Below, in pieces: positions 6,401 to 33,400 of a stretch of 45,776 nt of DNA (position 1 is the first letter of the stretch; each line of letters opens with the position of its first letter). The stretch is from Catajapyx aquilonaris. Its lineage: Eukaryota. A model generated the notes under the pieces. The model was not told where the DNA came from and did not search any database. It saw only the letters and a program-made list of their open reading frames with translations. The position numbers were made by a program, and so were the translations under genes. The DNA is taken from assembly GCA_000934665.2 (NCBI GenBank), contig JYFJ02003160.1:1-45776 (forward strand), given 5' to 3'.

Positions 6401-9400
6401 TCGATTGGAAGCCCACAGGTTTGATTTACAGGACAGCTATTGTGGACACTATATGCAGCACTATATTTTGTGCCAAAAAAACCTATATATTTTATTCGCA
6501 TTTTTTTCGGGTGAACATAAGTGCGGATTCCCACGTGTCGAAAGAAGCAACGGCCAGCTCTCTTTCGCCATCGATCAGCAATAAAGAGGGTCGGACCTTG
6601 GGGAAAAAAAGACAAGGTAAAAAAAAGGGCTTCCAAATTAAGTTAAAGGTGCGGGGGTGCTGGAAACAAGAGGCACTTCTTCAGGCCATGAAAATTTCAT
6701 ACGACTCACTTCAGAGCAACCAACATGTTGGAACCCCCAGAATATTTTTTTTGCATGAATCATTTCAATGCCCTGAAACCAAAGCTTGCAAAATAATACT
6801 GACTTGGCTATCGGATAATTAATAAATTATTCGGGCCGTGCCATGATACCGAGGGGAACTCCCGGAGGCGCTGTAAATTTGCAATTCAACGCATTAAACA
6901 CGTCAAGGAATAAATGGCGCTTGGCTAAAATCGGATTCCGTTATTATATCTGAACCTGGGCTCGAGTTCCTTGGCCTAAGGTAACATTGTAACAGTTGGG
7001 GTCTTTTTCCCCCCCTCTCCAGCCCCCTTTTCCTTTTCGGCAATGGATCCACAAGAAAAGAACGCGTGATAAATTGCACCTGGGTCATGCAATATAATTA
7101 ATGGCCCCCCTAGACTTTGGGCTGGGAGCATGAAAAATCGTCTCTGGACCGGAAGGCGACTCCGGACAAAACTGGGCAGCTGTAATGACCTGGGAATAAC
7201 AGTCGAAAAACTTGTGGAAACCAAATGGGAGCTGACCTAAGCGTCTATGAGAATTTCCGGAAAATAACTGCGCAGAGTTCAGCAGGCAAAAACATTACTC
7301 GGATTTCTTCAAGCAATAAGAAAAGTGAAGACTACCAAAGATGGACCAAAGTATGCAACAATACCAAGCTAAAAATATGCTGAAGAGAGACCCTGCACAG
7401 TCACCCCTAACGATAATGGACAATTTGAACGCGAATATTAATCGCTAAATATAGTTAGTGGAAAATTCCTCCCAGAATTAATGTGTTGTATGCTGTATGT
7501 CAAAACACTAATGTTAATTGCGGCGGAAAATTCAATTTCAGTTGCATCTGCTTACGTGTTCATGAATACTCAACGCCCTATGGATGTTAATTTCGCATAT
7601 CGATACATGGTAAGCACCAGTCGTTTCAAAATGAAGGTCAAGTATGCAACGCACTGGATAAAACTTGCAGTGAAGTGGGTTTTTACTGCAGGTTCGTAAA
7701 CGGATATGATTTAGGCTTACATGATGCATAATTACAAAGCCACTAATTGGCCATGGTACGCCTTTTAAAAATATTCGAAACACTCAGTTTGCACAGTATT
7801 TCCATTCCAAGTGGTTTTTGGCTCGATTCCAGTGGTTTTTCCTATTTTCCCGTGAGTAATTTGATTATCGCAACTTCATTTTAGTGATGCGTTTCATGCA
7901 CATGTCACGTAACAAACAGTTCTCCCGTGGCAAAAATTCTGTTCTACAAAAGCTGGCCCCCCATGAATAGTTTCACCAACAAAAGTTTCGTATCCCAAAC
8001 TATTTGAACAAAAAAAATAAAAATCCTGCATTTTCTCTCCTGCAGACAGCCATTACTTTGCTGTACTTTCCTGTACCTTAATTAACAAATTTGTACAGTA
8101 CATTCGTGCAACAATTCTGGGGTCTACTTTTCGCATTATCCGCGGTTCTGTCTGATCCCATGTGCACCATCGGAACAATCACTCTGAAAGCCGAACCTTT
8201 TCTGCTGCATATACGCACATAGGACAATCGACGTGTTGCGCATTCCAGTGCACGTTCCGAGCTAATGTTTCCTCTTTCCAAAAGCCGGAATCGTTCAAAG
8301 CACTGTGCTGGGTCTGGGGTTGGAAAATAGCAAAAAGAGAACCGCTATTATTTTCCGCAGTCGGTGCGGAGGACTTGGCACTCTCAGGATTAATGAATCC
8401 CAGTGGGAGATCTGATGGAAACTCACCGATATACCAGTGAATAATTTAGTTACGCCCCCATGATGCTTGTCGTTGCGAACCGTTTTTGTGTGCTATCGGA
8501 ACCTCGTTGCTCATACTGACAGCACAGCAAACCGTGATCAAAATCTCGTCTCGGATTATGATCCGATTTTTTTTTTTAAGAAGAAGGTACAGTTCGACCC
8601 CACACAAAACCGATCAACGGGTTTTCTTCCCCCGAAAATGTTTGATTGCACCCGAGAGGAGCCCTGGGAAAAGAAGACTAAATTGTCCCACTGGGAACCA
8701 CATTTATCACTCTGAACTGGCACAGTAGCTAAGACCAATGCGGCCAGATTGAAAAAAAAAATAGGGTTGTAATGGAACATATATCAACCTTTTCTGTCCA
8801 AAGGTTTTGCTGTCTTCATTGTGCATGCTCCCCATGTATAGCACAAAATATGATTGCAATGGGTAGCAAAAATAATTATGAAGTGCCTGTGCAATGTTAC
8901 TCGCGGTTTTAATTAAAATTTTAGTACGCTGTTTGCACTCAGTCATCCATAAACTGGAGTGGTTTGTGCAGAAATTTCACGCATTTTTCTGCTCCCCGTG
9001 TTTGCTAATATGCTGGAAAGTGCTACATTTCTGAGTTGACGTATTCCACCAGCCAGTTATTTTTTCCCCACTTCAGACTAGTGTGCTTAGTATGAAATCA
9101 GTTAATTTTTTTTTGACAAAATTACTGCGAACTGGCGAGGTAAACAACTGGTTTGTTATGAAAGACGCGGATTCTCCATCACAGCCGATCGGGCCTACAC
9201 ACCTCCTTTTGGCCTCCATTTTTGGCTGTCACCTTTTCACCGCCTAAAAAGTCAAAAGATGGGAACTTCCTCATCATCCACTCCGGAAAACACGGCCCGA
9301 AGCCATCAATCACTCACAACGTCATCTTAAGCCACAAACGGTAGTCCGGCTTTCCTGTTCCCAAGGAAACCCACAGCCTGCCAACTATACTTCACCACCA

Positions 9401-11362
9401 GAGAGGGTAAAGGCCATAGGAAAAATAAAAAATAAAAAAAGAACTCTCGCATTATATCCAGCGATGATGGAAGAAGGAAATGAAAAAAAAAAAGCTTAAC
9501 GATATTTGGATTGAAATAGCCGGCGGAGATCCGATTCTCATTAGTGCGCTGTTTTTTTCAGGGTCCTCCATTGAGAGAAAAAGAAATGCGAACTATATAT
9601 TGCCCATGGAAAAATACATCGTCGTGTGTTATCACTGTGCGCAGGACTATCCCGTTTCAATTAACAAGAAAGCCTCATCTGGGAAGGAAAATTCGATGGC
9701 AAACAGGTTTATGCTCCAAAGACTACGAAAAGCGCTCATCTCAAAAACAGCAGTGCGAATTGGTCTTGTTTTCCTGCTGAAATGACGAGCAATTAAGATT
9801 GATAGGATCTGAAGAATTTCAGGCTATTGTTTTCTTGTGGAACGTTTGATTCTTCACTCGTGTAATTACGCGTAGTAATAGGTGCAATCGGCGACAACAG
9901 GCTTAATTTGGAGGGGTTGCGTCCATCTTAAGACGCACGAGCGACGGCAACAGACGCAATTTCCGGATCGTTGAAACCGTTAGTGATTAGTAGACCACTG
10001 AGCAACGGTTGGTCCAGGATTTGTAAGACCCAAGCAAAATTTTAGACCATCACTTTTTTCGAGAGAGAGAATCAACAACATCGTAGCTGAAAAAGGAAGA
10101 AGATTGATACCAATTTCCTTCCGAGTGAGTCGCCATACAGGTTGAAAGACGATTCGCTTACAAGTCCAAGTGGGCTGAAAAAGTCTATTAACCGGGGGTC
10201 CCACCCCATTCACACGAAAACGACGTTATTACTTCGCTGGTGTCAAATGTAGCGTGTAGTACTTTTAGATTAGGAAAAAAAAAGTTCAGGATCCTAATCG
10301 AAAGATCAGCTTCTCAAGTTCGATCTCAAACCGATCGATGTAGTGTTTTCTTTTCTCCGTTCCTCTCCTTGCTAGATCCTCCTAAGGGACGAAAGGCCGA
10401 AAACCAATCTCCTGTGATGTGTTGGGTTTTTTTTTGGGTGGGCTATCAGTAGTTACTCTTTACCGAACGAAGAAAAAATATATATACACATTGATCAAAA
10501 AGTAAGGGGTGCAGCAAAATTTAATTCCCTGAGTAATGTGGGCATAAAGCTGCTCGGGATTTCTTAAATCCTTTAGCTTCGCGAAAAAGAGGCCTGGAAA
10601 GTATTGATTTAGAGAACTACACAAGTTTTACTTTTCTCTCTTCCTCGCTCTCTTTTTTTTTGTTCGTCGACTGAGATTTCAAAGTAGCCTAAACCCCTTC
10701 GGTAAGTCAACGGCAAGCAAGGTCGGCTCTTTTTCCCCACTAAGAAGCTCAGCGCCACTAATAGTCCGATTTCAAAAGAGTTCATTTTCTGGGAGAAAAC
10801 GCATCCGAGGAGATCAGCCAAAGAAACCTTCCCTGATTGGAATGGCCAATGTTTCCGGAAGACCCACTTACATATCGCAGAACTATTTCCATGAGTTTTT
10901 TTTTTCGTTTGCTCGCTAACATAGGTCCCTCTCCGAATATTTTGTGATGAGTACATCAAACTCTTCTTAGCGTAATTTTTTTGATAAAAAATCGTAGGCC
11001 TTTTGACCCCCCCCCCNCCCCCCAAGCTGACCTCCTTCTCTTGCGAATGTAGGTCTTTGTGTCTCCGCCCAGGGCCATCCATATTTTTGGGTGCAGTAAA
11101 TCTCCAGTGGTGGCTCCCACTGAAACTAATTGCAGAAAGCTGTCCCCTCTCAATTAAACCCGCCCTTTCTTTCCAATTAATTTCCCTCGCCCAGAAACCC
11201 GGACCCCCCATTCCACGCTCGCCCAGCAAACCAACTCAATTTTCATTTCAACGCACGTCTCCATCAGCCTTAGTGGAAAAAAAAAGAGTCACATCCTGGC
11301 CTGTATGCAACCAAAGCGCCTCGATTGCTCTACATTTCATCTACATTTCAGGCGCAATGACT

Positions 11363-11538
11363 TTTTCTCCTAATAGGCTTATTCTCTCCGTCGGATGTTT
11401 GTCCGACGTGATAGTATCGCTATCTCTCGCACTATACCTGATGCGCCATCTATGCGTGAAGAATACTACTACGTGGTAAATCGGCGGGCATTGATTGTCA
11501 CTGTCATACTGATTACAGGTTTTGCCAAATTTTAGCTA
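11363..11538 (+). repeat. Dispersed repeat copy 1 (putative non-autonomous element fragment)
   Basis: Shares the blocks tttctcctaataggcttattctctccgtcggatgtttgtccga, gcgccatctat, tactacgtggtaaatcggcgggc and tcactgtcatactgattacaggtt with 13666-13878. Confidence 0.8.
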
Positions 11539-13665
11539 CATCTATAGTATAGACACATTTTTAGTCTCTCTCAGCACAATTTCCTGCATTAGTCTTCTTC
11601 GTTACAGCCATGACAGCCTCGCAACAAAATCTTCACATCTAAAACAAACAGAACCCAAGACTTTACTCGACGCCCGGATGAGCTCACAAAAGACTTTCCG
11701 CCCCATCCCCCTCGGTTAATCGAGTTTTCCTCCTCAAGACTCAGCTCGCAGGTGCCCTTATTCCCCCAGCAACAAACCCTGCACAAATGAAAATTGCTCC
11801 GAACTGTGAAATTGGCAAGACGTGAAGGTAAAGCGAGCGAAACACCTAAACAACACAAATATACAGGGTGATTTCAGAAGTTTGAAGTAGCCTCCCCACA
11901 AAAAAAAATCGAGTTGTGCTGAGGTTTATGGAGGGCATTAACAGCTAAAGGCATCCGTCAGACCCCGTTGTACTCATTCTGGTGTAAAAGGCTGCTGGTT
12001 CTCTCAAGGGGCGAAGGAAAGGAAGGTTTTCCTTTCATCACAGGCCCCTATTATTGCCACGGTTAGTTGTCCAAGTGGGCCGTTTATCTCGAGTCTGGAG
12101 ACCATGTCCGAGCCCTTTAAATGGCCACACCCCACGTCTCTCAAAACTATTCCGCCGAAAAGCACTGGGGCGGCTTCTAAGCAAGTTAAAGCTTCAACTT
12201 GAGTAAAGTGTGTGAATTATGCTTTCAGTAAAATTACTGTCAGAATTTATTGACCTTTTTGAGGGCATATCGAGTAGCTTCAATGGTAGTAAAAGTAACG
12301 TTTATTGCACGCATAAAACATCCGATCTGTCATGTGCGACATGTAAAACCTTGATTTACCAATTTTATTTTGTACCATTTTAATTTCGAGCGCACGTTAA
12401 AAACTTAGCTGTAATTGCTCTTGGTATCTATTTCATTATCAAAAAAAAAAGTCTCTCTTGTAACCGACCGCAGTTACATTTGGTCAGTTTTATCTCCTCG
12501 TACTCATTTGAATATCATTTCCCCCCACAAACCTCTGGTGCAGATCTGGAGATTATCTGGGCCACATTTTTCCCCCCTCTCGCCCCCGCGTAACACCAAG
12601 GGCTGCCCCATAAAAGCGAGGCCGTAAAAAGTTTTACGTCCAATTCCGCGAATGGATTCTGCGAATTAATTTCTCGCACAGTGTGAATGGGCATATATAT
12701 AATAGTAAAAAAAAAGGCGGGGCCGAATTTCAGAACTGCGGCGACATGAAATGTGATTTCTGATCCTGTTAACGCAACACCCGTGGTTTTGAAAGGCATA
12801 TATTATATTCCATTCGGGGGTCTTGAACTCGACACGTTCACATCTGAAAAGGTCTTGTTCAATGTTGAATATTCGCTTGCAACACAACGTAGTAAATTAC
12901 CCCCAGTTTGTGAAATAGAAATGACTGATTGCACTAAACTGTGTACATTACGAGCCCTGTAAAACGGTAAACAATTTAGCAAAACCTTTCGTGCCAAATT
13001 GAAATTCCCAGGTATAGTATACCAAACGGTCCACTTTAACGGGGACTGTAATTAACAATTTAAAATATAACTAGCATATAATTACTCTAGAGGGTTATTC
13101 CAAAACCTACAGTTTGCCGTAGAGAGTCGTTAGCATGTTGAAGCATTGTTGTGGCCCATATTATTTGCATACATTTAGGAAACGTATACTCCCAACCTTG
13201 GTTATGAATAACTTTAAAATCACAAGGAAAATGGCCCAACACAAAAGTACCTCATTTTTTACAACTTGGCTGTCTATACATAAATTACATGCGCTAAATT
13301 TTCGAGCACCTAGAGAAATCCTGATATTTAAATTCAAGCTCAATACGGCCAGGAACCAAAAGCCTGTGTCGCCACAAAGTTGCTTTAATGTTCCTATTTT
13401 TCCAGTGCGATTTTTTCTCTCTCTCTCTCTCCCCAGCACTGTGTATATATACACTTACTGTGCTCTTTTTCACCCTATAGTTCCAGCAATATTTCACTGT
13501 CAAGCCAGGCCTTCAAGACCTGTCGCCATATTGCAAAGATAAAAAATTCCGCCACATGTACTTTCTCTTCCATTCTGGAGTGGGAACAATTTACACCTGC
13601 ATACTTCATGTAAGTGTCTCCTTTATTTTTTTCGCAACAGCAGCTATATTAGATGAATGGTAATC

Positions 13666-13878
13666 TTTCTCCTAATAGGCTTATTCTCTCCGTCGGATGT
13701 TTGTCCGATCTGGTAGTAGCGCTCTCTCTCACGACCTGAAGTTGGCAGCAGTGTGCAGAGGAAGTGTGCGCCATCTATCAGGCAAGAATAGTACTACGTG
13801 GTAAATCGGCGGGCCATCTCATAACCGTTGTTCAATTTTCACTGTCATACTGATTACAGGTTCTGCCAAATTTTGCTA
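13666..13878 (+). repeat. Dispersed repeat copy 2 (putative non-autonomous element fragment)
   Basis: Direct diverged copy of 11363-11538 with two insertions. Confidence 0.8.
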
Positions 13879-16333
13879 ACGGGTTCACTTGTGTTCACAG
13901 GTTGGGCAAAAAGCTTTTCTGAATCTCCTGGAGGTTCAGTGTCCGCTTGGCAGCGCCAGAAACAAAATTATGCGGCCGGCATCCAGTGCTGCAGGTCACC
14001 AGAGTCATCGTACAAAGCTGTCATCTGCTGATGCAATTACGCCGTTCTGGATTCCTGGCTGGATGTAATTAAGCCATTGATCGACAGGAAGGCCCCGCCC
14101 CATTTATGCTGCTCTCGACTCATCACAAGGCTCCCCCACACCCTCTCCCTCCGAATTCACAGCCGCGCAAAAACCCGATTCTTCACTTTGCACCGCATAT
14201 TAATCATCCCCGTGGCACACAGGCACTGGGGTGGTTTTATTTCCTACCTTAGACACGGCTTCATTCCCCACCCCTTAGGAAGGAACCCTCCTTTATCGGT
14301 TTTCCGACTGGTTTTTGCTCCCTGATGAGAAACCCAGCTGCGAATTCGCAAGTCAGACTCGCAGACTAAGATGCAACTAAGATCCCAATTTTGCTACAAG
14401 TGCACCTGTGCAGTGTCAATTATCTCCATGTGCTGTACACTCATTTCCTGCAATTATTTTCATTACACAATTCAACATTAGTCACGTGGAAGCATCTTAG
14501 CTTCCCTCGTCTTAACACGTTTGTTTGTAAATTCCCAGCATCAATTATTGTGAAGTCTGGAGGTGCCTCCGTGTGAAGATATACCTTCGGGAAATGGCAC
14601 AGCATTTCGCAGGCTTCACACCCGCCTGGAATCCCCTCCGTTGTTTCGCATATGAATTAACAAGCCTGGGAAAATCCAGGGACAGCACCCCATCAATTTA
14701 GGTCCGGCCTTTTGTCTTCCCATCCTGCTGCCTCCCTGTCTTAATGGAGGATGCTAAGGGTGCTAATGTCTTTCAACTTGTGTTAAGGTGGGGGATGACG
14801 GTACAGCCACGATACTTACCGCGATACACAAGGTGGTACACTGTCCAAGTACACAGTAACACTAGAGAGTGTTGGTCGGTGTCTTTGGAAAATGGACCAC
14901 CCTGTAGGCATAAATGAGACCACCCTCCAAGTTTGATGAGGCCGACGAGGAATCCAATTAGCGCCCACTAAGAAGTGCATTGTTGGTCTAGAACAATGAC
15001 GTTCTTGGCTAGGACATCCCACCTATTTATGACAATTTTTTTTTGCAAAAATATTTGCAGCATGATGAGGCTGGTATGCGGTTTGTTAGCTTGCAGCGGG
15101 TCCAGTGTTTTTTTTTTTGCTGGAATTCGTAAATTTATGACGCCGTGTGTTAATCCTCTCTGGCGGATTCATGTCCTGCGAATCCTATTATGAATGTTGT
15201 TTCTTACCGCAATCTGTCGTCAGGGACGGTTCCTGTGGTCTGGCTCCACAAAAGGTGGTTTTCGCGTAATTACAAAATTGCATGCAGGCTGGTAAAACTG
15301 CGTGTGATTCGCCAAAATTCACGCCCGTAATGTTTCTACTAAAATGCTGCTAATTGGCGTAAGAGCATTCAATGCTCTTCAGCAACGCATTTTTTTTTTT
15401 TACCTACTACTCATGCCGTAGTCCTAGTACTTGTTATTAAGCAGCCTTAAGCAACAATTCATCCTGATATTATATTACAGTACCATATTTCATACAATGG
15501 GACAAATTACAACTTTTTTATTCATTTCAGATTTCACATACAGAGGCGCGAATATTGACATTCAGCAGATTCATCACAGCGGAAATTTACCTTTCTTAAT
15601 ACAAAATGAGGAAATTAAAAAAGAGGGTATTATCTACGGCTTGCCTTTTTGTTTAATAAAAAAAAAATCTCACGTCAGTTGGCGAGCACAACTCTCATTA
15701 CTTGTATGGAATACTGCTAATGAGAGCTGTGCGCTCCAATCCAGGCCAAATGCAGTCATGTGTCAGCTCGGGGGTTGACGCTGTGTGAACCATTGTTTCC
15801 CTCCGGCACAAACCATTGTTCAAAAGTTTAATTTGAAGGTATATGCAAATGGGGGAGGTCCACGTGAATAGACGACGATACCTCTAGTGAATGCCGGAAA
15901 CAAGCTTTGCATATATCCAAATGGGGAAAATACCGAGAGTGGGTCCTGCTCCCGTAATTATCCAAATGACATTTTGTAATCTATGACTCGACACCAGAGA
16001 CAAATCCATCCCGATTCCCAAACAAAAAAAAAACTAGTCTACACTGACACGGAATTACTCATGCGGTTGCGCTGTTCAATGTATTGCAACGGGGATCTAA
16101 TGGAGCTTGCAACTCGCCACATATTGAGTTATCACTAGGATTGTCATGTACCGCGGCTCTAAAAACGAGCGTGGGAAACTATGACTGCAGCTTTAATTTT
16201 CCGCTTGTTCCCGGATACACTCCCAAAATCACCATCGGATTTTAGCTCATTACCATGTAATTAATTTCATCCCCTGACTGCTGCCAAAGGATGTGTTGTT
16301 GTTGCCAGAAAAATTACGTCCAAAAAAAGGTGT

Positions 16334-16397
16334 CTATTGCTTCTTCGCACCATGGGCACTGACCTGATGTCGGACCAATGCATCAGACCGAGTATAT
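16334..16397 (-). CDS. hkb-like exon 4 (end of finger 4 and stop)
   Basis: Acceptor ttttcttacacttcag|a; reads (R)[20 protein letters not shown] with TAG at 16336-16334. Confidence 0.85.
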
Positions 16398-19300
16398 CTG
16401 AAGTGTAAGAAAACAGTATCATTTTTTTCCCCAACCATCATCCAGTCCCTATTGGCTTTATTAAAAAGCGATGGCACACCCTGCAGGCAAAAACCCAGGC
16501 ACAGAAGCAATTTGCATGTTCAAACCAAAAAAAAAAATGCATTCACATTGCTGGCAAGCATTTCGAAACGTGCCATAATTGCGCTCATTGGAACGAGAGA
16601 GCATATGAAAATGGGCAGGCCACGTATTATCTGATTTCACCACCGGATTTACAATGATACTAATTGATCACCCTGCAAATTCCGTCAGGCCACAGAATCC
16701 AATACCCGTCGAAATGAAGCTTCCCTCCTGATTAAAAAAAGCAGGACAACACACCTTGGAGCAACTGAAAGCAACCTCTATTCCCCATGATGTCCCCTTC
16801 AAAAAAAAAAAGGGTCAGGAAAATCTCTCTCTGGAGGCACCGGCCTGAAGCACCTTCCCTGAATCAACACCGCAGTGTTGTTTCTGGCCCCGAATTAAGT
16901 GCCAGCAGCCGCCACCCTGAAAGGTCACAGGGCTTTTACTTCAACCCCAACGGGTTCCCCGGTTAAAAAATAGGTCCGGAAAAAGTACGGCAAAGGCGTG
17001 TTACTGCGATGTTGGACAGGTCTTACAGCACTGGTCTACGGGCGCATTAGACGGTGATGCTAGCCCAAAGTTGCTCAAACTTGTCTGAGTCACGAACACA
17101 GCGAGTCGGAGGCAAACCCGTGGAATCCACTGAACAACACGCCCTTCAATTTTTCATGTAAATCTATACGCAATTATCATTAGGTGCAGTAGACAGCCGA
17201 GTGCAATAGGAGATGGGGTTGCTGCTCTCTTTAATTAGTGCTAATTATCTTCAGTAAGGAGGCTGACCAAATTACATCCTTACATAAAATGATCACCTGG
17301 TACCCAACACTTCCAGGAAGTTTCTCAGAATCATTACGAAACACCCTGTGTATTACATTCCGCGTTTTAATTCGCCAGTCCGTCCGGTTTGCTGGGTGTT
17401 TATACTGTTTATACGGCGTCGTAATGTCCGCTTCAACACCCCCCATTCCGCCGCAATTACGCTAAAAAGTTACAGCACGAGATGTGTTGGCCAGAGAAAT
17501 TGATACAACAGAAGCATGCGAACAACATTAACCCATCAGTAAGATTGGTGTAAGTGCACTCCAGACGAGTCCTAAAATCCGGCCACATTGCACTGTTAAA
17601 AAAAACCAGTGATGCTCTAACAGCACAGGATCGCCCAAAAAGTGATCTGTCCACCAAAAAATACAGTAGTTTTTTTCTTGGCTTGGGTCCCATTCCACTC
17701 ACGCCAAGCACGCAATTTAACCGCACCTCACACAATGTCCAGATTTTCCTCTCAGCACAAAGTGGATTTTCATTGCCCCCGGACCTCGTCCTAAAGAGGA
17801 TCCACAATGCATGAGGATCAAAAATTCAGGGAACTGGTTCTGACTGCCAAAAAAATGTGCTTGCATCCACTTCCGCATCCTAAAACCCAGCATTTTCTAT
17901 CACATTTCCGGGGCTTTTCTTATAGGGTAATCCCACAGTGCGTTGACAGATCAAACACAAGAGACAGACGGAATGTAAGGGGGATTGGAGGAAAGTGTCA
18001 ATAGTAGGCGACGGCAAGAGGCTTAAACTGAGAGCCTCTCCCTAGTTTCAAGGCAAGGAAAAAAAAAAAGGTTTTATTTTTTAAAACCCTTACCTATTTC
18101 CGCAGCCTGAGACGCTGCACAAGTAAATCCTCTTCTCCGAGGCTTTTAAGTGAGTCTTCTTATGCTTAGTTAGGTGATCCTTCCTGGAAAACGTCTTCTG
18201 ACAGTCCTGAAAACAAGACAGGAATCAATACATGCCACTTTGTCCGAAACAATTATTTTTTTAAAAAAACAATGAAGCGGCATATATATATCCCGCTTCA
18301 TTGTTTAAAAATGGTTTAAATGGTTTAAAAATATATTAGTATGAGATTTGGGAAATTAGCTAAACTATACCTACAATTCCACCACTTTTCAGCAACAAGT
18401 CGATAGGTTAGTCGATAGGTTCAAAAGTTACTCAAATTGGCGGGGGAAAAATTGGGCGTAGCCTAAGGGCTCATTCGGACTCCTGCCATCTGGGGGAGGC
18501 AACTATATATACGTATTTCTTCAAACAAAAAAAAACTGCAAAATTCATTTAAAAATATTGACGACTTTTTTTTTACATCTGTTTACACTATTTGGGCTAT
18601 AGGACCCCCATTGCATACTACATCGGACGAAAATGGTTGGAGCGAATATTAGGACCGTGTAATCATCAGACGTGGATCAAACGAGGTTCCAAATCAGTAG
18701 GGGGGTCAAGGCCTATCTGTTATGCATGCGATGCTGTCTGCACCAGAGGCGGATGCAGCGCCAAGCAAGAAGCAGCCTCAGAGTTCATCTAATTAGGAAC
18801 GGAGGAAATCCGGACGGACGTGATGTATGGGAGGGGCTATACCTGCCTTTTAGGATTAAAATATCAAAGAGGATATATATAGGCATGTAGGGTCTAAGAA
18901 CAGGTTACAGTATGGAGCAATCGATGTGCTGGAGGGGGGGCCAAAAACTGTTAAAATAATACATGCGAGGGTGAGGTCAGAGGGCAGAGCTCTCGAGGGG
19001 GGGTAATCCTCAGATCCGAATTTTCTAAAAATGCAAATGAGTCCGCTCATGAATGAATATGAATGCATCGGTCGATTCAAACCGGTTCACAGTTCATTCG
19101 CTGTGTGACAACCCAATCGGGAAAATAGTACAGTCAGAATAAAACTAACATTACTGTTAGAGGTACTTAAAAAAAAGTGTTTACATCACGCTGCTTGCCT
19201 CTAACAGTAAGTAAAAATTGGTGTTACAGCAAATTGATTCTCTTTGGAATATCGCTTTTTTGTGGCGCAGCTGTTCATAACTTTAATCAATCATTCTGCG

Positions 19301-22300
19301 CTCTGGTTACCCTTCAAATAACGGAATTTGCATGAGTAAATGGCCCGGAACATTCGCTCAGTAAAATCTAGCGGCGTATTTTGCGGCGATTGGCATCTTT
19401 GGTTGTCCCAAACAACAGAGTCCCTGGGCAACAATACAATGTTTACATGGTGACTTGTATTCTAAACAAGTCCCCCATCAGACCCTTGAAGTTACGGACG
19501 TGTCAGTCCAGGGCTCTACCTCTCTTTGCCCCCCGTCCAAACATCCGCAAAGAGCCATGGCTCCTAAGGTCAACTACAACCGGTTGATCCTGAAGGCCAT
19601 CTGCGGACTGCAGGACCGTGGAGGGTCATCCATGGCCAGGATCAAGGAGTATGTGGCATCCCACAACCAGGAGATGACCGAATCCCAGCTGAGCCGAGGA
19701 TTGGTCTTGGCTCTCAAGAGAGGGCTCGTCGACGGCCTGTACAGCCAGTCGGACAGGGGGTCATTCCGGGTCACCAGGAAAGGGGTCAGTTGCATTCACA
19801 ATTTGTCACCATTTCATTTTTGCGGAACACCATTGTTGCTAATGACTACTGTCGTCAACAACAGTTGGTAATAACATGGCCTGTTTTTCAGAGGCGCGAG
19901 TCGACGTCAACAGCCCTGGATCGTCGTACCGCTTGCAACGGGCACATCCACCACCACAAAAGGAAGAAGGGGAAGAAGGGGAAGAGACGTGGAGGATGCC
20001 GAGGACTAGGAGGAAGGAAGAGGAGGAAGGGAAAGAGGAGGAGGAAGGGAAAGAGGAGCAGGAAGGGAAAGAGGAGGAGGAAGGGAAAGAGGAAGGGCAA
20101 ACGTGGATGCGGATGCTAAGAAGGGCAGATGCGGACGTAAGTGTTCACACTGGCGTCCATGTCTTTTGGGGGGTGTCCATCGACCCAATGACAATTCTTC
20201 TCTTGATTTGGTCAAATTTCAGGTTTGACCCCTTGGAACCCCAGGAAAAGTGGCAACGACGAAGCAACATTGGTCCGCCTCAAGAGTCGAGGTATTTATC
20301 AGCATCCAGGCTTTTTTTTTACACCCGGAGGCACCAAATTAAAAGTGTGGAAGAAAGTGTCGCGATAGTAGATCTGGCAACAGAGCAACAACCTTTTCGA
20401 TCGGAATAAACTGATAAAATTCAACTGCGTAATTTTATTATTGAACTTGTAGGAACTTGCAAGTTGTTCCAACCTGCAGTTTGTTGACAGTCAGGTTGAG
20501 TTGGTACGGTTTGCATTTGGAGTTAGCGCAACTGGAAAACAACAATTACCATGACCACGGTAGCTAATCGCAAAATGGTTGCACGTTGACAAACGATAGT
20601 TTTTTTTTTTTAAATAAGCATATTACTTGCGGGGTCATTTCCGCTGAAATCTTGGTTCAGATGGTCTATACCATGCAGTGGGACGGTTCGGCGTGTGACA
20701 GATGATAATTTTATAAAATGAACTCATGAACGGAATTGCACAGTGAATGAACCTAGCTAAGAGACCTGACTCTTGCCCCCCATCCCAGACAATCCTAGAA
20801 TCGCCAAACTTGCAGCCATTCCGGGATAACTAGGGCTCATCGCAGATGCTGAGAGCCTACCTGACTTATCGAGCAATCCAGGGCACCCCCGAAAGGGGAA
20901 GGCCTGCAGCAGGAAAGTTGAAAACGAATGAGAACCTCTCTTCTTCCCTAACAACCCCCTGTTAAACATTGGGAGGGGGGGGGGGGTAACTGCCTTCCTG
21001 CTTGATGATGATGATGAGCCAGATAACGATGATGGCTGCGTAGATTGTGTTAAAAGATATTCCTCCCATGGGGAAAAGGACTGTGACGGTGTCGCCCCTT
21101 CTTAACCTCCCCAAGATGCTACTTCGCCCCGAACAAGAACATCCATTTGTAACTCAAAATGTCTTCCGCAAACCTCCTTTTTTCCAGTTTGTTTTACAAT
21201 AATAATAAAAAAACTTCATTCAAACGGTCGTTCAACCCCAATCACTCTATATAATGGCGCAGTATCCGACCAGTTCACGGCATGCAAATGAGCCGCGATG
21301 GACTTTCCCAGCATCGGTTTGCATTACCAGTAATTATTTACGCATACAGTGGAGAGTGGTACACTCTTCTTCGAGTTACAGTTTCATGAGTTGCGGTGTG
21401 ACACTCGCGGATAAACAGCAGTGGAGTGACACCGTCACAACAGTTTACATCCAACCAACCTCTTGAGAGCTTAGCGGCTAGCTGCAAGTGCCTCGAGTTT
21501 TAAGCATCACGTACAGTGCAGCTCCCCAAACTACTGTAATTACGGCGGTTTGTCCCCCTGGAAAGTGGAAGGCTTCTACTTTGAAGGAAGGAGAAAAAAA
21601 AAGTATATTGAGTTACTTAAAAGTTTGGAAAGGACATCTATGACAGACTAGGCCTGTGCGGATGTTCCAGACAGAAAACGCCACAAAATTCTGTCATAAT
21701 ACCACAAGTTTATCCTGACTATTCGGAGCAACCCTCCATACATGAGTGCTCAGCGGGCAGTCCGACTTGCAGGATAAACGTCCTGCAAATTTTATTATGA
21801 AAAAATATTGCTGTCATTTTATATCTCGTCCATCTCGTCCATGACCTCCAAGGCAACCGGGTTAAACTAAAATAATATATTGATTGAAAGATGACGCTTC
21901 TAACAATTCCAGTGCCACCTGCACCCTTTTTCCTTCCCTTCTGACACTTCAATATCACAGCGTCAGATCCAGGTTGGTCGCAGAAGGAAGAGAAATGTTC
22001 ATTTTCACCACCCCCGCAATCCTCTTCTTCTCCGATCCCAAAAAACTCATTTTTTTAACCAAAAAAAAATATGGGGTAGGGGGGAGGGGGGGTATAAGCC
22101 TTAGAGCAGATATAGAGGAGAGAAAAAAGCCGGCCTGGTGATGAATGGGAGCACTTCTCCGAACTCTCCCAAGTGTCTCCAGGCTGATAAATATTCATGA
22201 TACAATATGTGCTGGATTCCATTCCTATACCTTTACTCATTCACCTGCGCAATTTTTTTAAAAAAATTAATCGCCTTTTTAAAAAATTCCCCAATGCTCA

Positions 22301-25300: not shown

Positions 25301-25963
25301 GCTCCATCATAAACTCCATTCTTGTATCAAATCTTATGGAATACGACTCGCACTCAACAAATTCATCTGCCATTTCTTTCTTATTTTCCTTCAGTTCTTA
25401 GTACCTTCCCATTTTCTTCAATTCACTTCAGTTTGTCGGCTAATTATGCTTAAAATGCCAACCACTCCCCATTCAGTCATAAATTAATTCAGAACATATT
25501 AATTGCTGATCGCGGAACCAAATGCAGCCCATCCATAATCAGAAATTTTACACAGCACAGTTACACTGAAATGCACCATACCTGTATGAATACGAATGTG
25601 ACCCACAAGTTGAGCGTGATTATAACATGTGACATTGCATAATTTGCATGCCCATTTCCGCCTCATGGGCTGTGGCTTAGTTTCCTGCACATCCCCATCA
25701 GTTTCGAAAGGTCGCCAAAAACTGCCTGCACTAGTTTTTGTACTAGTTGTAATCTTGGGCAAAATGGGGCCGCAAGTGATGGATGGCTTCAGTTTCCTAG
25801 TAACTTCCAATTTCTTATAAGCTGTTCTAAGGCGATAGTCACACCATGCTTCTCTGCATGTAAAGTCTATGAGATCTCGTGTGGTGCACATGCAGTTAGA
25901 TTCAAACTCACTGAATCCATCACCCGGCTGGAATATGTTCACATGCAAGTACGTTGTGCACAT
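16334..25963 (-). CDS. hkb: Huckebein-like C2H2 zinc-finger transcription factor (4 fingers), spliced
   Basis: Hand-assembled complement(join(16334..16397,18094..18206,24647..24759,25582..25963)); start is ATG 25963 or 25891. All introns are GT-AG with matching phases 1, 0, 2. Fingers: [113 protein letters not shown]. Recognition helices (QLx[14 protein letters not shown], RxDHLxKH) match my recollection of Drosophila Huckebein; WRPF motif lies N-terminal to the fingers. The symbol is a family-level call. Confidence 0.8.
18094..18206 (-). CDS. hkb-like exon 3 (finger 3 and start of finger 4)
   Basis: Acceptor tgtcttgttttcag|gac, donor ag|gtaagg; [37 protein letters not shown](R). Confidence 0.9.
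19389..19454 (+). promoter_or_regulatory. Putative promoter of the protamine-like gene: reverse CCAAT plus three RFX X-box-like motifs
   Basis: attgg (19389-19393); gttgtcccaaacaac (19402-19416); gtccctgggcaac (19420-19432); gtttacatggtgac (19441-19454). All lie about 100-170 nt upstream of the ATG. Confidence 0.45.
19557..20119 (+). CDS. Histone H1/H5-derived protamine-like basic nuclear protein (winged helix plus Lys/Arg-rich tail), 151 aa
   Basis: join(19557..19784,19892..20119); start context gccATGg; intron gtcagt...tttttcag, phase 0. Exon 1 [37 protein letters not shown]...[22 protein letters not shown] has H15-domain hallmarks (AI..L.DR.GSS...IK.Y; ALKRG; GSFR). Exon 2 ends in a 53-aa tail with 17 K, 17 R, Gly and Cys. 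AATAAA at 20405-20410. Confidence 0.85.
24647..24759 (-). CDS. hkb-like exon 2 (finger 2)
   Basis: Acceptor tttctctgcag|gt, donor cag|gtatga; (G)[37 protein letters not shown]. Confidence 0.9.
25582..25963 (-). CDS. hkb-like exon 1 (N-terminus, WRPF motif, finger 1)
   Basis: Part of ORF 25499..25963; ends HIRIHT-g|gtatgg. The 5' boundary is uncertain (ATG 25963, or acceptor at 25928 with ATG 25891). Confidence 0.8.
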
Positions 25964-28900
25964 GCCGCTTGCTCTTGCACCTCAGGCATGAAAATTCACT
26001 CCATGCACTGAAGTGGTGCTTGCCTTGTTTTATCAACTCCAATGATAATCAAACATTACGCCCCTTTCAAATGTGGGAGGGTATCCCCATTAGGCCATCA
26101 GAGAATGGGCCCCCACAAAATAACATTAGGGCATCAATGTGAGAGTGTCAGCTATTTGCACATGAAAATATTTGCAATGCTGATACCACATGAATTTGTG
26201 GGTGCTTCATGTCTAAGCGAATAAAACTAACCCTCCAATTCTAATGGCATAGCCCTGGTAGAGCACACAGAACATTTTTTTTGTCTTCGTTAAGCAACTG
26301 CTGTTCGCGTGGCTGATCACTCGATTGCCTTGTAATCTTATCCTATGAACAATGGACCCACGCCTACCACTTCACAAATATCGCTACTGTCTTATTTGCA
26401 CACCATCAGGCACTCGACCTAAGGTCTTTTACACACACACACACATCCAAGGTTTGGCATAACCACAAAATGTGATTTAAACTATTTAAAAACATGTAAC
26501 ACATTTCCTTGCACTGAACTAGCATCTCCTAATGTCCAAGGCATAAAGAGATGTTCATTAAATCAAATGCTGGGAACAAGCATAAGGCTGACAGGCCATC
26601 AGGGGCAACCGCATGGTACCGCAAGTATAGGCATTAACTAGGACAGAGCAATTACAAATTTAATCCTTACCGAGCATGCAATACCATAGTTAAAAATCAC
26701 TTCCTGCACATGCAAGCCAGATTGCCATAACCAACAATCACTTCTTGTCGTATAAATGGCAGCGTTCACTTGCAGGTGACAGCTGATTCCTATCACCGCA
26801 ACCCACATGATGGTACCAAGGAAAATATTTTTTGCATCAGCCTTTTATGTACTAGTAGCGAGTAATCAACCCATATTCACATGAAGTATTTAATCATAAA
26901 GCACATCATCAGTTTACTACTGAGCCTTTGAAGCATTATGCAGCAACGCAACACATGACAAAGGATCAGTAGCTTACTATCTCAATGTCTGCTATTGCAC
27001 CATAGGCAAGGAATGTGCCTTTTAAAAATATCACATAAAAATTAATAATGTAGCTGTCAATTAGAAATTGCATTATTACTCATGTCAACAGGCTAAATTT
27101 GGGAGAAAAATAATTATTTCTTTGTCAATAAATTCCATGAAGTTGCTCTGAACAAATATGGATCCAGTGCGAATGGCAGCTAATTACTGAAAAGTGAGGC
27201 TTCAAACACAAGGTATCAAAATATACTGATATGTACGCATCCCTCCACACATAGGTGTTACCATGACTTCATTCTCATACAGTGCATGAGAGTGTCACCA
27301 AGTAGATCCAAGTGTCATATACATTATACGCACAGAGGGGTGCAAAGGTATTCTTTTATTAATGCTAAATCCGCACAGTGCAGATCAAAGTACAGCCATT
27401 CCCTTTGGCACATTTTCTCCTAAAGTTGAGCCGCACCGTTGATGACCATTAATTCAGTCTGCGTTAAATCTGATATAAAGTGAGAGCCTTTTAACCATTG
27501 CCCTAGCTGCCACGCATCAACTTGAAACTACGGAGTGATCACCCACTTTGTTATTAACCATAATGAGCCAGCACTTTCCTTTGTGTTGGTTTTATTTTTT
27601 ATTTTTTAAAGTGCATGTGGCCAGAATCACAAAAAGTTCACCCGTACAACATCAAGCCCACAACAAAAACTGTGGCTGAATCCGCACTACCCACAGGCTT
27701 GCAATAGCCGCTCTAATTACATTGTAATGCTCGTTATTTTTTATGACCTGTCTCACCTGATGTTTTTGCCGCCTGATTCACACGCACATGGCCACAACAA
27801 AGGACGATTTACACGTGTCGAATTTTTGATAAATAAGGACAAAAATTACTGTCCAATCAGACAACACCACTTGTCAATTACGACCAATTGAAATGCAGTG
27901 TGTTACATGCGCCTGCGTACACTAGATCATGCACGTGCATTGTTGTGCTGTGTACTTTAAACTGTTGTAGATTTAATACAACATGATAGTATTAATGTGG
28001 TATGATTGTTTAAAAAAATAACTTAACATTTGACAGTACATGTTGCCAGATGATGCGCATGATTTGAACTTCATATGCTGTACAGTTCACCGCAATACTT
28101 AGTATGCAGGTTGTGTACACTTTTACAATAATTTATCCTTGGTTTTAAAAAAAACGCACACACAGCATGCAAAAGCCTGCATATGAAAAACAGCTTAACC
28201 TTGAGACTTTTTTTTTTTTGAATTAATATTTTCTCCCATATTCACCATCATGCGAGTGCAATTACTAAATAATTTGTTCACAAACGGAGATGGTACGGCT
28301 TTCCGCTGAGTAACAGGAACAAAGTCTGCAAAATATTTACCAATGAACGATAAATTCCGATACCCAAGCATATTGTAAATCACACATAATTTCAGTCGAT
28401 ACCTGTAATAAAACAATTTTTTAAAAATTAAGGTCATTTAATCGCTCTTTTTCTCTTCTTTACATAATAGACAGATGCTGTGTTACTGCAATAATATAAT
28501 AGACACGCTAACCATTATCATCAACTGGTCCACATAATATGGTTTAGGTGTAAAGTCCCCGCCACTACACTTTTTTTTTTGAGACAACATTTGTTATAAT
28601 CTGCACAATTTCTCAACAATAAATAGTTCACTCTGAGCCTCCTACATTATTGCAACAAAGTAATAAAATAAAATAAAGCGTCCATTTTTTTGGGTAACGG
28701 AGCCAGGGAAGGAACTCTTCCGTCCTTTTCCTTTCTCCAAACAAATATCGAGAAGGGGTTGGGTTACCAAGCAACAATAACAACAGTTAAAAACAAAGAT
28801 TACCAAAAAAAAAAAAATTTACACACCATTTCCAACCAACAAGTTCAGTCTTCTTGTTTCCGTTTTGATCACTGCACAGGGGGGTAAAATTACTGACTCC

Positions 28901-30485: not shown

Positions 30486-33400
30486 TTAGCCAAACTCAGG
30501 TCCCAACAGCTGCTCCATATTCCCCGGATTGTTCTCTGGAATGCCACCTGGTGCTGACTCTGCCTTGGTTTCTCCCTCTGCCTTGTACAGAATTTCGTGG
30601 CATAACGGACACCTGTCCTGCACATACAGCCACTTTCTCAAGCAGATGCTGTGGAAGAAGTGTCGACAATGGGTGATTTTGGCTGATCGCATCTCCTGGT
30701 AGCATATTGCGCATACGTCATCCAGAGTTGCCAGCTGGTGTGCTGTTGCCTCCGGAAGGCTATTGATCTTGTTCACAGCTGTCCTTCGCTTCATAAACAC
30801 ACTCCAACCAGAGCGAGCCTCGCACCATATGTTGAAGTAAGCATGTATGCACATCATGATGGCACGTATGGTGCCACCTGACTCAAACAGTAGGATCCAG
30901 GCACCATTGAAGAACAGGAAGATTCCAAAGAAGAACTCCACCGTGTTGCCAAACGCACGTATGTAGTACACATAGTCATCCAAACCTTCCCAAAATGTTG
31001 CCCGCCAGGCATCAGCCAAGAAGAGAGCATATATGGCCAGAGAAACCAGCACTTTGACCACAACTTCAACACTGAAGGCTGATACAGCCAGTAACCAAGT
31101 GTTAACTGTGTGGTGTGTCCACAAATAAAATAGCAGCACAGTTGGTGCCACCAGCAGGAAGAGGCAGACCGACAATGCCCGCACGTGACGATGCATTGCC
31201 GGATTGTGCGATGCACTCAATGACATCATCAAGGGATTGACCATGTTGTGCACAAAATGAAGCAGGGCTGTAAACAGGAGGCAAAAGTTGCGACAGAGGC
31301 GCACAAACCTCTTCTCTGGCTCCAGAGTTGTTAACCCAGTTTGAAGTGCCAGTATGAAGAATAATATAGCTGACACTGTGCCTATACTCCTATCATCCTC
31401 CTCATCCACTAATAACAGCCGCTGTAATGCGCACCCTACAAAGTGACATGCACGTGATATGACACTAGTCATCCCTAAAACAGCAGTCAATGTCTCACAA
31501 CCACGAATCAGGGCTGACACAACAGCGCCACTTCCGGCCCCACTGCCAGCCCAAGTACTACCAGCTATCTGTTCCCCAACTCGCACCACCCAGAAAGTAC
31601 GAAGCACACACGGTACATTGATACGTGTCCATTCAGCTTCTAGTAAGTTGTGAAGCCCAAAGTTACGCACATACGCCCGTGTGTGGGAAACACCATGACG
31701 TAAGACATGAAGGCCAGATGGGGCACCAGTCCACAGGGAGTGCTTGACAACCAGAAGTGGGATTACAGTCGCAAAGGCAGGCAGGTGCTCCAATACAGAG
31801 GCTGGAAGAGGCAGGGCCGCTGCCACAGTTGGAGCTGCAAAGCAGCATACCACACAGAGATCCAGCACCTACAACATATAAGAAACCAATTTTGAGGGAC
31901 GATATCAAATTATTCACGGAGCCACGAGTTAAGATTCTTCTTCCCTGACCACAGGAATACAGAAATTGACCTTCATAAACATTTCTGAGTCATCTTTTCA
32001 CATAAGACAAGGTCATTCTAACCAGAATAACATTGTTTTCAACTAGTAAATAACTTATTCACATACGCTCAACTTCCACTACCAAGTTGAACGCAAAAAA
32101 ATATTACACCATTTGCACATTATTGGTAGTGGTGTGGTTTCTTCGGATGCATTTAAAGGTAAAAAATTGAGTACGAACAGCTAATTTTGAACCGAATTGA
32201 ACAGCGACTTAAAACTGCAACCTTGAAGATGAAAACATGTGCACTGCAGAAAATCAAGTATGTGCAATCACCAGCTTCCTGACTTTGCAAAAATACAAAA
32301 CTACATAAGAGGCAATTTGTGCAGCACAATACTATTCAAAGTCACTTCCTTCGACGTCTTGAAAACTGTGCACACTTATTGCAGTAGGAGTTTACTTTGG
32401 AAATTGCAACATTATTTTTCCACATAAAACTAATAATGAAGTATGATAATAATTACCATTTAATATCTACTAGTAGCACCCTTCATTTTGACTTGCATTC
32501 AATTTGACTTTAATATGCAATTAGTCAGTGTGTGCCATATTGTTGTCAATATGCCATATTGTATTGTATTATCATTTTGTATTATCATATTGTATTGTCA
32601 ATATGCCATATTGTTGTCAATATTTGCTCACCAAACTTTTTGCGATAGAAGACACGTATAAAAGGCTTACATGAATCCTAAACTAAGGAATAAAAATACT
32701 GTACTATTACCATGCAACAAAATATTTGTCACGTTGATAAAATTTACATTACCTGTTGCCTACCCGTCTGCCCTCCTCCCCCTGCATTCCCGCTCCCACT
32801 GCTGCTCCCTGCACTCCGGAGGTATCCAAACCCTACTCCCAACGCCATTTGCACTGCATAGTTGGCGACCATAGGCACCAGCACAGTGTTCGAGTCTAGT
32901 ATCCTCGAAGGACTGAGGGCTGCCATGGCCTCGGAAAAACTTCCTGGAACTTCTACTTGCGGTGTGACTGTTGCAGCATCCAGTCGAGAACCCAGGATCG
33001 CCCTGGTCATGTGCAGGTTGCTCCAGTAGGACAGTACCACAATCAGGGTGGACAGAAGATGGCAATACACTATCAGCAAGTGCCTGGTGTTCAGCAAGAA
33101 TGTGCACAATGCAGCACTAAAACCTGAGGAATAAATAAAATCACTAATCACAGCTGCTTATGATGCTGCTACACAATCTACAGTGTGTCCCAAAAATTCT
33201 GGTCCTCTTTGTTATCGTAAATTTTGCTCCTTGCTAGTTTTGCATGCTCCAATCAAGGTGTCATACATAATTGGACACCTCGATTAGGAGGACTGCTTCT
33301 GACAAAATTGCATCTCCCAAATGTTCATTAATTCTTTGGCATTTGCAGGCGAAAAGTATGAAATTCACAATCCAAATAAATGAAGATTTGGCACAACGTG

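Follow-up and report, generated by a model that had tools for sequence, protein, structure and literature searches.

The window, by which we mean the whole 45,776-nt stretch of DNA analysed here, carries on its plus strand a candidate two-exon gene (19557–20119) for a small basic protein with a linker-histone (H15) winged helix and a tail rich in Lys, Arg and Gly. The predicted spliced product has 151 residues, a molecular weight of 17.1 kDa and a pI of 11.87; the two exons were analysed separately for fold and in searches. An initial annotation of this DNA had proposed the same two-exon, 151-residue model (ATG at 19557, exons 19557–19784 and 19892–20119), which was reproduced here together with all the other sequence-level statements of that annotation. 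The features of the locus are as follows.

19503..19508, plus strand: initiator-like TCAGTC, about 50 nt 5′ of the ATG; a possible but weak transcription start
19557–19559, plus strand: start codon ATG in good context (GCC ATG G)
19557..19784, plus strand: exon 1, 228 nt and 76 codons, translated as five N-terminal residues and an entire H15 winged helix
19785..19891, plus strand: predicted phase-0 intron, 107 nt, GT..AG, read from consensus signals only
19892..20119, plus strand: exon 2, translated as 75 codons plus TAA
19958..20116, plus strand: polycationic segment, the last 53 residues; proposed DNA-condensing protamine-like part
20012..20093, plus strand: 18-nt tandem repeat, 4.6 copies with 93% matches (Tandem Repeats Finder)
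20338..20410, plus strand: candidate poly(A) signals from a pattern search, ATTAAA at 20338 and AATAAA at 20405, 219–286 nt past the stop codon

Gene model and surroundings

The intron is in phase 0, since the 228 nt of exon 1 make up 76 whole codons. Its donor (GGG/GTCAGT, at 19785) sits exactly at the end of the H15 domain, and its acceptor consists of a pyrimidine tract followed by CAG/AGG, with exon 2 running from 19892. The first AG past the pyrimidine tract opens the basic frame, an outcome with a chance of one in three. Retention of the intron would lead to a stop codon at 19869–19871 and to a 104-residue protein that lacks the basic tail. Openness of the exons is by itself weak evidence for coding, because stop codons are likewise absent from 90 of 2000 mononucleotide-shuffled versions of exon 1 and from 175 of 2000 of exon 2. 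Moreover, the purine-rich DNA of the tail is long-open in two of the three plus-strand frames, so that the open tail frame is no evidence when taken alone. The splice that would join the H15 exon to the Lys/Arg frame is predicted from its GT and AG consensus signals only. The TCAGTC hexamer upstream of the start codon (19503..19508) is presumably a match to the arthropod Inr consensus; any 6-mer may also occur by chance.

A search of positions 18500–21500 (E ≤ 1) assigned neither a histone 3′ stem-loop nor any other Rfam family to the gene; a SCARNA7-like match in the same interval was discarded as sub-threshold and outside the gene. A Pfam scan of the 138 ORFs of at least 75 residues in the window detected no core histone gene or ORF, and the Linker_histone match is unique to the exon 1 ORF among them. 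A second H15-like stretch at 15062–15277 (tblastn E value of 0.27) has no convincing ORF and no Pfam match and was rejected as a chance similarity. The locus thereby differs from a replication-dependent histone gene in its predicted 107-nt intron and its poly(A) signals, as well as in the lack of a stem-loop and of core histone ORFs, and a transcript would probably be polyadenylated. No other Pfam domain occurs on the plus strand between 13.3 and 30.5 kb (138 ORFs of at least 75 residues windowwide and 86 ORFs of 40–74 residues), and for this reason the candidate, isolated in its position, is judged not to be an exon of a larger gene. The flanking TRC8 is 64–65% identical to hymenopteran TRC8, and its best listed protein, at most 71% identical, is hemipteran, which suggests that the host is insect-like and probably not hymenopteran. 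A myosin light chain gene also lies near the locus.

The winged helix and the basic tail

The initial annotation had described a divergent H15 winged helix and had named Pfam Linker_histone (PF00538) as the check on exon 1. The result was positive: the score of 40.5 bits exceeds the cut-off of 22.4 (E value of 3.1e-10 for a single protein), and the match spans residues 6–72 and profile positions 3–73 of 74. This match leaves five residues at the N-terminus, with helix 1 beginning at residue 7, in keeping with the near absence of an N-terminal tail in the original description. The AlphaFold2 model of exon 1 (pLDDT of 84.8) contains helices at residues 7–18, 26–36 and 42–59 and strands at residues 62–64 and 69–72, so that the predicted fold comprises three helices and a β-hairpin wing. 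The best Foldseek matches of the model are globular domains of H1.0, H5 and H1.x (TM scores of 0.78–0.80, r.m.s.d. of 1.4–1.8 Å), the PDB sequence matches are to H5 and H1.0 (E values of 0.002–0.004), and the top Atlas clusters for exon 1 all carry Linker_histone.

On the profile match and the model, the H15 domain is real but divergent, since its 40.5 bits compare with 65–111 bits for the five library H15 proteins that were rescanned on Linker_histone, and since it keeps few of the basic positions of chicken GH5. Over the aligned stretch of the PDB sequence match, four of these 13 positions are kept and nine are lost. We take the equivalents of R42, R73 and R94 to be kept and those of K40, K52, K69 and K85 to be Q, E, V and D, in the numbering that we assume for GH5. 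The domain has a net charge of +7 and is 37% identical over 67 residues to a canonical-looking library H1 (P0017).

A phmmer search of exon 1 against 1.84 billion representative proteins returned 21 matches at E ≤ 0.001, all of them generic or multi-H15 proteins with 24–47% identity. No ortholog was found among these representatives, none of the 21 matches has a similar tail and a self-match was also absent. With respect to the Nv-PL1/Nv-PL2 (PpH1V1/PpH1V2) orthogroups, the same 1.84 billion representatives yielded no specific similarity beyond generic H15, and a word-indexed homologue search of exon 1 against longer proteins gave none at E ≤ 0.001.

The 75-residue tail encoded by exon 2 contains 21 Arg, 17 Lys, 15 Gly, four Cys, four His, two Ala and no Pro (51% Lys + Arg). 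It begins with a 22-residue spacer that includes Ser, Thr and His, with one R-R-x-S site and an H-x-H-H-H run, and continues with the polybasic segment. These last 53 residues comprise 17 Lys, 17 Arg, 14 Gly, three Cys, one Leu and one Ser, end in G-C-G-C, and have a mass of 6160 Da, a pI of 12.0 and a net charge of +34. Lys and Arg account for 51 of the 151 residues (34%) of the whole protein and for 64% of the segment. The composition bears out what had been read from the sequence at the outset, namely a tail without the Ala/Pro character seen in somatic H1 (no Pro and two Ala in 75 residues) in which 34 of 53 residues are Lys or Arg in equal number, with Gly and a cysteine-containing end.

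At the DNA level, the coding strand of the segment is 90.6% purine, and the tail uses AGG for 14 of its 21 Arg and AAG for 15 of its 17 Lys codons. The 18-nt tandem repeat lies inside the polybasic segment and encodes a repeated Lys/Arg/Gly hexapeptide. Contigs assembled from the source DNA runs cover the locus but break inside this repeat, and 33-nt purine look-alikes of it occur at at least two other loci in the same genome. One further sequencing run lacks the gene and contains such look-alikes only. Exon 2 matches no Pfam family, interpretations of the tail as AT-hook or HMG were dropped for want of a Pfam match, and an ESM Atlas search with the tail gave no usable match. Polybasic tails of Lys, Arg and Gly are also found in proteins of the nucleus and nucleolus that have no connection with sperm.

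Relation to linker histones, protamines and protamine-like proteins

A canonical linker histone is tripartite: its globular part is flanked by an N-terminal tail and by a long C-terminal domain rich in Lys, Ala and Pro. The candidate shares the fold and family of the globular domain with somatic H1, H1.0 and H5, but it departs from the somatic layout in its 5-residue N-tail and in a C-terminal tail that has lost the Ala/Pro character (no Pro and two Ala, next to 21 Arg, 17 Lys, 15 Gly and four Cys). It also differs from somatic H1/H5 in keeping only four of the 13 GH5 basic positions, in its predicted intron, and in having neither a stem-loop nor a histone cluster nearby. True protamines (P type) are small, arginine-dominated and devoid of a globular domain, and the compositional range of protamine-like (PL) proteins is intermediate between histones and protamines. 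In the candidate, Arg makes up 17 of the last 53 residues (32%) and a folded domain is present in the precursor; as Lys equals Arg in the tail, it is not an arginine-rich protamine. An H15 domain combined with a Lys + Arg-rich composition (34% overall, 64% in the last 53 residues) corresponds to the PL type.

An H1/H5-type globular domain followed by a Lys/Arg-rich tail is common to the candidate, to PL-I/PL-II* of bivalves and to the H1-related sperm nuclear basic proteins (SNBPs) of tunicates and annelids. The bivalve, tunicate and annelid proteins belong to other phyla, are usually larger and have longer tails in which Ala, Ser or Pro are still present, whereas the tail of the candidate is built on a short Lys/Arg/Gly hexapeptide repeat with Cys. 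In Mytilus, post-translational cleavage gives rise to the small basic peptide PL-IV of 6.5 kDa, as cited in the arthropod PL papers.

The initial annotation had assigned the PL layout to molluscs, tunicates and fish and had set it against the mostly HMG-box-derived SNBPs of Drosophila. The architecture, a winged helix with a Lys/Arg/Gly/Cys tail, was upheld, but H1-derived PL-type SNBPs are already described in arthropods, in reports on Hymenoptera (PMC13148410, PMC10264595, PMC12216123) and on spiders (PMC11607694). An H1-derived PL layout is published for Nv-PL1/2, PpH1V1/2, Am-PL1, the spider precursors and Drosophila Mst77F. In two of these reports (PMC13148410, PMC10264595), Nv-PL1 and Nv-PL2 of Nasonia, PpH1V1 and PpH1V2 of Pteromalus and Am-PL1 of the honey bee are testis H1 variants or PL proteins. 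Like the candidate, the hymenopteran PLs have an N-terminal winged helix and an unstructured basic C-terminal part with Arg, Lys and Cys (PMC13148410). Their genes have introns, and the mRNAs are polyadenylated (PMC13148410, PMC10264595). PpH1V2, with 147 residues and 16 kDa, is intron-containing, polyadenylated and testis-predominant (PMC10264595) and is paralleled by the 151 residues, 17.1 kDa, single predicted intron and poly(A) signals of the candidate, which has no stem-loop. The same report describes the published testis H1 variants as rapidly evolving (PMC10264595). PMC13148410 places the hymenopteran PL genes across Hymenoptera and reports them absent elsewhere; the candidate is unlike them in that its host is probably not hymenopteran, and its likeness to them is one judged from published descriptions. 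The expression and function of the hymenopteran PLs were demonstrated by RNA-seq, mass spectrometry and RNAi, whereas those of the candidate are predicted from sequence.

The H1/H5-like protamine precursor of spiders (Araneidae/Theridiidae), for example that of Araneus ventricosus, has a C-terminal protamine region with an Mr of ∼6200, up to 6.5 kDa, and a pI of ∼12 (PMC11607694). The candidate resembles it in its H5-like winged helix and in a C-terminal block of 6160 Da and pI 12.0, and this 6.16-kDa block is within the size range of the spider region, of bee P1/P2 (5.5–6.6 kDa) and of Mytilus PL-IV. In the spider winged-helix domain the C-terminal hairpin is reportedly missing, whereas the model of the candidate keeps it (strands 62–64 and 69–72), and the spider products are termed protamines, whereas Lys equals Arg in the tail of the candidate (PMC11607694 for the spider proteins). 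The host here is insect-like, a further difference from the spider system. Exon 1 passes the Linker_histone cut-off of Pfam, whereas the similarity of Drosophila Mst77F to H1 is weak. Mst77F, discussed as a WH-type PL in PMC13148410, is male-specific and has a WH-like head and an unstructured basic C-terminal half; according to the same text it is cleaved and its C-terminal part enters sperm chromatin.

Interpretation of the locus

We read the locus as a stand-alone, intron-containing linker-histone (H1/H5) variant gene in which remodelling of the C-terminal domain has produced a protamine-like polycation, an interpretation in which our confidence is about evenly balanced. By analogy with the published proteins, a role as a sperm protein is plausible, and we infer male-germline expression, cleavage and a function in sperm chromatin. 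In such a protein the N-terminal winged helix would bring the molecule to chromatin or DNA, and the 53-residue Lys/Arg/Gly tail (net charge of +34) would neutralise DNA phosphates and condense spermatid chromatin; disulfide or metal bridges formed by the three to four cysteines of the tail could lend stability to the condensate. Phosphorylation and proteolytic cleavage would be likely to occur in the Ser/Thr/His spacer. A cut in this region would set free a peptide of ∼6.2 kDa, and release of a peptide in this way has been reported for mussel, spider, bee and wasp PL precursors.

The complete H15 domain with its wing would suit ordinary nucleosome binding as well as it suits a PL precursor, and its best PDB matches, H5 and H1.0, are replication-independent somatic variants. 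The gene might then encode a replication-independent linker-histone variant, or a chromatin or nuclear protein of another kind, that plays no specific part in sperm (a somatic, embryonic or stress-related H1-like protein, for instance), its Lys/Arg/Gly tail serving in general DNA/RNA binding or in nuclear/nucleolar targeting. We consider this unlikely in view of a tail that is unlike somatic H1 (no Pro, two Ala, no S/T-P-x-K-type motifs) and carries Cys and a Lys/Arg/Gly hexapeptide repeat, an N-terminal tail of just five residues and the loss of nine of the 13 GH5 basic positions; in addition, the nearest published architectures in size, intron, poly(A) and combination of winged helix with a basic Cys tail are testis-specific. 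That exon 1 encodes the H15-like winged helix at the N-terminus of a KAT6/Enok-type (MOZ/MORF) acetyltransferase, or of another multi-domain protein, is highly improbable. The WH domain of MORF/KAT6B is the second-best PDB match (E value of 0.0019, TM score of 0.78) and likewise lies near the N-terminus of its protein, but the H1.0/H5 matches are equal or better, the Pfam family is Linker_histone, and no PHD, MYST or other domain was found on the plus strand from 6 kb upstream to 10 kb downstream.

The gene model itself may be wrong or the locus non-functional, a possibility that we rate as somewhat unlikely. Exon 1 would then be an H15 relic or pseudogene, would yield the intron-retained 104-residue product alone or would have another splice partner, and the Lys/Arg tail would be an accident of a downstream purine-rich microsatellite. 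Such an accident is consistent with the 90.6% purine content of the tail and its 18-nt repeat, with the paucity of stop codons in purine-rich DNA (175 of 2000 exon 2 shuffles are open) and with the similar 33-nt purine stretches at at least two other loci of the genome; the missing self-match among 1.84 billion representatives and a splice read from consensus signals point the same way. Against it, the H15 ORF is intact from a good-context ATG through the whole domain and its product folds at a pLDDT of 84.8, the donor lies at the domain end, and the first AG gives the basic frame, for which the chance is one in three. The basic frame also closes with a stop codon, and two poly(A) signals lie in the next 290 nt; the 10 kb downstream contain no other coding exon in which a Pfam domain was recognised.

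Beyond the remodelled linker-histone gene that we favour, a more specific history can be tentatively proposed, although we regard it as doubtful. A non-hymenopteran insect-like lineage may independently have turned a replication-independent H1 into a protamine-like precursor: slippage of an 18-nt purine repeat (AAG for Lys, AGG for Arg, GGA for Gly) would have generated a young polycation in place of the original Lys/Ala/Pro tail, and a ∼6.2 kDa Lys/Arg/Gly/Cys peptide would be cleaved off and pack sperm DNA.

Arthropod sperm nuclear basic proteins are poorly catalogued; Leyden et al. (PMC12216123) state that SNBP genes have hardly been annotated at all in insect genomes, and attribute this to the short, repetitive and fast-evolving nature of the proteins. 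A gene that is somatic or unexpressed would be merely another divergent H1 variant or relic. If the locus does encode a PL protein, H1-derived PLs would be represented in an insect-like lineage other than Hymenoptera, the idea of recurrent H1-to-protamine transitions in arthropods would gain support, and the repeat-built tail of the protein would offer a simple model for the origin of a polycationic DNA condenser. Should the independent origin also be true, H1-derived SNBPs would have a third documented origin in arthropods, in addition to those in spiders and Hymenoptera, and one in which the route from H1 to protamine would be visible at the DNA level.

Gene model and H15 domain

The two-exon, 151-residue reading frame at 19557–20119 (+) claimed in the initial annotation was reproduced from the sequence, with the splice as a prediction. 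The predicted spliced protein has a molecular weight of 17.1 kDa and a pI of 11.87. The gene model contains the following features.

19557 (+): start ATG, context GCC ATG G
19557–19784 (+): exon 1, 76 codons
Directly after 19784 (+): predicted intron donor GTCAGT (sequence signal)
19880–19891 (+): predicted intron acceptor, pyrimidine tract then CAG (sequence signal)
19892–20119 (+): exon 2, phase 0, 75 codons, then TAA at 20117–20119
20338 and 20405 (+): candidate poly(A) signals ATTAAA and AATAAA, respectively, after the stop (pattern search)

Exon 1 matches the Pfam Linker_histone profile with 40.5 bits (cut-off 22.4 bits; E = 3.1e-10; profile positions 3–73 of 74) and is the sole such match among the 138 window ORFs of at least 75 aa that were scanned. 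A phmmer search against PDB sequences places the globular domains of chicken H5 and human H1.0 on top (E of 0.002–0.004). The AlphaFold2 model (mean pLDDT 84.8, pTM 0.70), which rests on a 13-row alignment, has three predicted helices and a two-stranded wing, and Foldseek relates it to H1.0/H5/H1.x globular domains (TM 0.78–0.80, r.m.s.d. 1.4–1.8 Å). Since the profile match, the PDB search, the predicted model and its structural neighbours all support it, we regard the H15 assignment as solid.

The domain is divergent, as had been proposed, scoring 40.5 bits against 65–111 bits with the same Pfam model for five H15 proteins from the library search; it shares 37% identity over 67 residues with one canonical-looking H1 (P0017). 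In the PDB phmmer alignment, exon 1 has a basic residue at four of the 13 positions that are basic in GH5. In GH5 numbering, exon 1 keeps equivalents of Arg42, Arg73 and Arg94 and has Gln, Glu, Val and Asp for Lys40, Lys52, Lys69 and Lys85, respectively. The net charge of the domain is +7, and it may bind nucleosomes less well in the canonical on-dyad mode.

Basic tail and search for relatives

The composition first described for the tail was also recovered: the last 53 residues (19958–20116) comprise 17 Lys, 17 Arg, 14 Gly, three Cys, one Leu and one Ser, and the entire 75-residue tail contains no Pro and two Ala. This polybasic block has a mass of 6.16 kDa and a net charge of +34. The tail also contains a Ser/Thr/His spacer, in which a single R-R-x-S site and a run of H-x-H-H-H occur. 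The tail DNA is 90.6% purine, with two of the three + strand frames long-open, and 175 of 2000 shuffled versions of exon 2 were free of stops. It carries an 18-nt tandem repeat (20012–20093; 4.6 copies, 93% matches). As to the origin of the tail, Lys and Arg can presumably interconvert by single transitions because Arg is mostly AGG (14 of 21) and Lys mostly AAG (15 of 17), and tail length can vary by whole repeat units because the codons sit within a slippage-prone repeat. The purine-rich repeat core (20015–20048) has look-alikes of at least 90% elsewhere in this genome, at no fewer than two loci with differing flanks. A sequencing run of uncertain kind (X5) contains only such look-alikes of the repeat, 33 nt long and from other loci.

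When exon 1 was searched exhaustively with phmmer against 1.84 billion representative proteins, 21 matches reached E ≤ 0.001 (24–47% identity), mostly multi-H15 or ordinary H1 proteins; none of the 21 has a comparable basic tail, and a self-match was absent from the set. A word-indexed search with exon 1 for longer proteins returned none. The nearest ESM Atlas clusters are all Linker_histone, two of them arthropod clusters, and an ESM Atlas search with the tail returned nothing. With generic matches, no self-match and no match to the tail, the gene therefore appears to be unannotated and either lineage-restricted or fast-evolving.

Genomic surroundings

The Pfam scan of the 138 ORFs picked up no core histone genes in the window, and 18500–21500 contains no histone 3′ stem-loop at E ≤ 1, which gives the gene the look of a replication-independent variant. 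Few genes seem to lie upstream of the H15 gene, as no ORF of at least 75 aa in 1–19000 has a Pfam domain; a single N is located there, at 11017. The other genes recognized in the window are the following.

30489–34240 (−): TRC8/RNF139-type RING E3 ligase gene, at least three exons
38394–38837 (−): myosin regulatory light chain-like exon that encodes an EF-hand and an N-terminal extension rich in Ala and Pro
43698–44723 (+): MFS transporter frame, 342 aa, MFS_1 40.9 bits

A 460-aa TRC8 exon scores 490.9 bits with Pfam TRC8_N and also carries a RING finger; one intron runs from the donor CAG|GTAATG at ~32752 to the acceptor TTGTAG|GTG at 31869. Among the matches listed, this exon is closest to Hemiptera (at most 71% identity), with Orthoptera at 66–67%, Hymenoptera and Lepidoptera at 64–65% and Diptera at 60–65%. 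These identities point to an insect-like host that is probably not hymenopteran and lacks close annotated relatives in the protein collection searched. The EF-hand scores of the light-chain exon fall under the curated Pfam cut-offs; the encoded protein may resemble insect flight-muscle Mlc2. The MFS frame has a weak acetyl-CoA transporter family match and probably represents one exon of a transporter. Between the TRC8 and light-chain genes lies a tandem array (35788–36221; periods of 93, 31 and 49 nt, 72–92% matches) traversed by long spurious ORFs. An ORF at 25502–25981 (−) has a borderline match to a C2H2 zinc finger (zf-met, 20.9 bits; cut-off 21.2), and a weak SCARNA7-like Rfam match at 21124–21259 (−; 21.7 bits, gathering score 65) is probably due to chance.

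Interpretation

Our best reading, to which we give an even chance, is that the gene encodes the precursor of an H1-derived protamine-like (PL) sperm nuclear basic protein (SNBP). The winged helix would target chromatin and the 6.16 kDa, +34 tail would condense DNA; its cysteines may cross-link the condensate, and the Ser/Thr/His spacer is a plausible phosphorylation and cleavage site.

The tail is less well supported than the H15 domain. A wrong gene model or a dead locus is an unlikely alternative. An intron-retained version would stop at 19869–19871 and give a 104-aa protein without the basic tail. Geometry is the argument for the tail: the predicted donor is placed at the end of the H15 domain, the first AG past the pyrimidine tract yields exactly the basic frame, and this frame closes with a stop codon ahead of ATTAAA and AATAAA. 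The four sequencing runs listed for the stretch are DNA runs from one sample, which may be the source of the window; their contigs span the locus and end within the 18-nt repeat. An H1 variant or other nuclear protein with no role in sperm is likewise unlikely. The second-best PDB match of exon 1 is a KAT6/Enok-type winged helix, and we considered whether exon 1 is the N-terminal domain of such a protein. We rejected this idea, now hardly credible, because the + strand shows no other Pfam domain from 6 kb upstream to 10 kb downstream of it in ORFs down to 40 aa.

The PL-type SNBP interpretation of the initial annotation is partly supported. Its domain and architecture hold, and the testis-specific expression it proposes is a prediction; its claim of novelty for arthropods is outdated, as the layout of winged helix and basic tail is already described in Hymenoptera and spiders. 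The two most strongly expressed testis-specific basic proteins of Nasonia are Nv-PL1 (216 aa) and Nv-PL2, Nv-PL1 RNAi impairs fertility, both genes occur across Hymenoptera with none found elsewhere, and Drosophila Mst77F is treated in discussion as a winged-helix-type PL (PMC13148410). In Pteromalus, PpH1V1 (216 aa) and its companion PpH1V2 (147 aa, 16 kDa) evolve rapidly; their genes have introns and their transcripts are polyadenylated and predominantly found in testis (PMC10264595). Spider protamines of ~6.2–6.5 kDa are reported to map to the C-terminal end of a precursor that is H1/H5-like (PMC11607694), and bee P1/P2 (5.5–6.6 kDa) and other insect SNBPs to be cleavage products of precursors (PMC12216123). 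The Catajapyx gene adds no new principle; it would be a useful and testable SNBP candidate for a lineage without documented ones.
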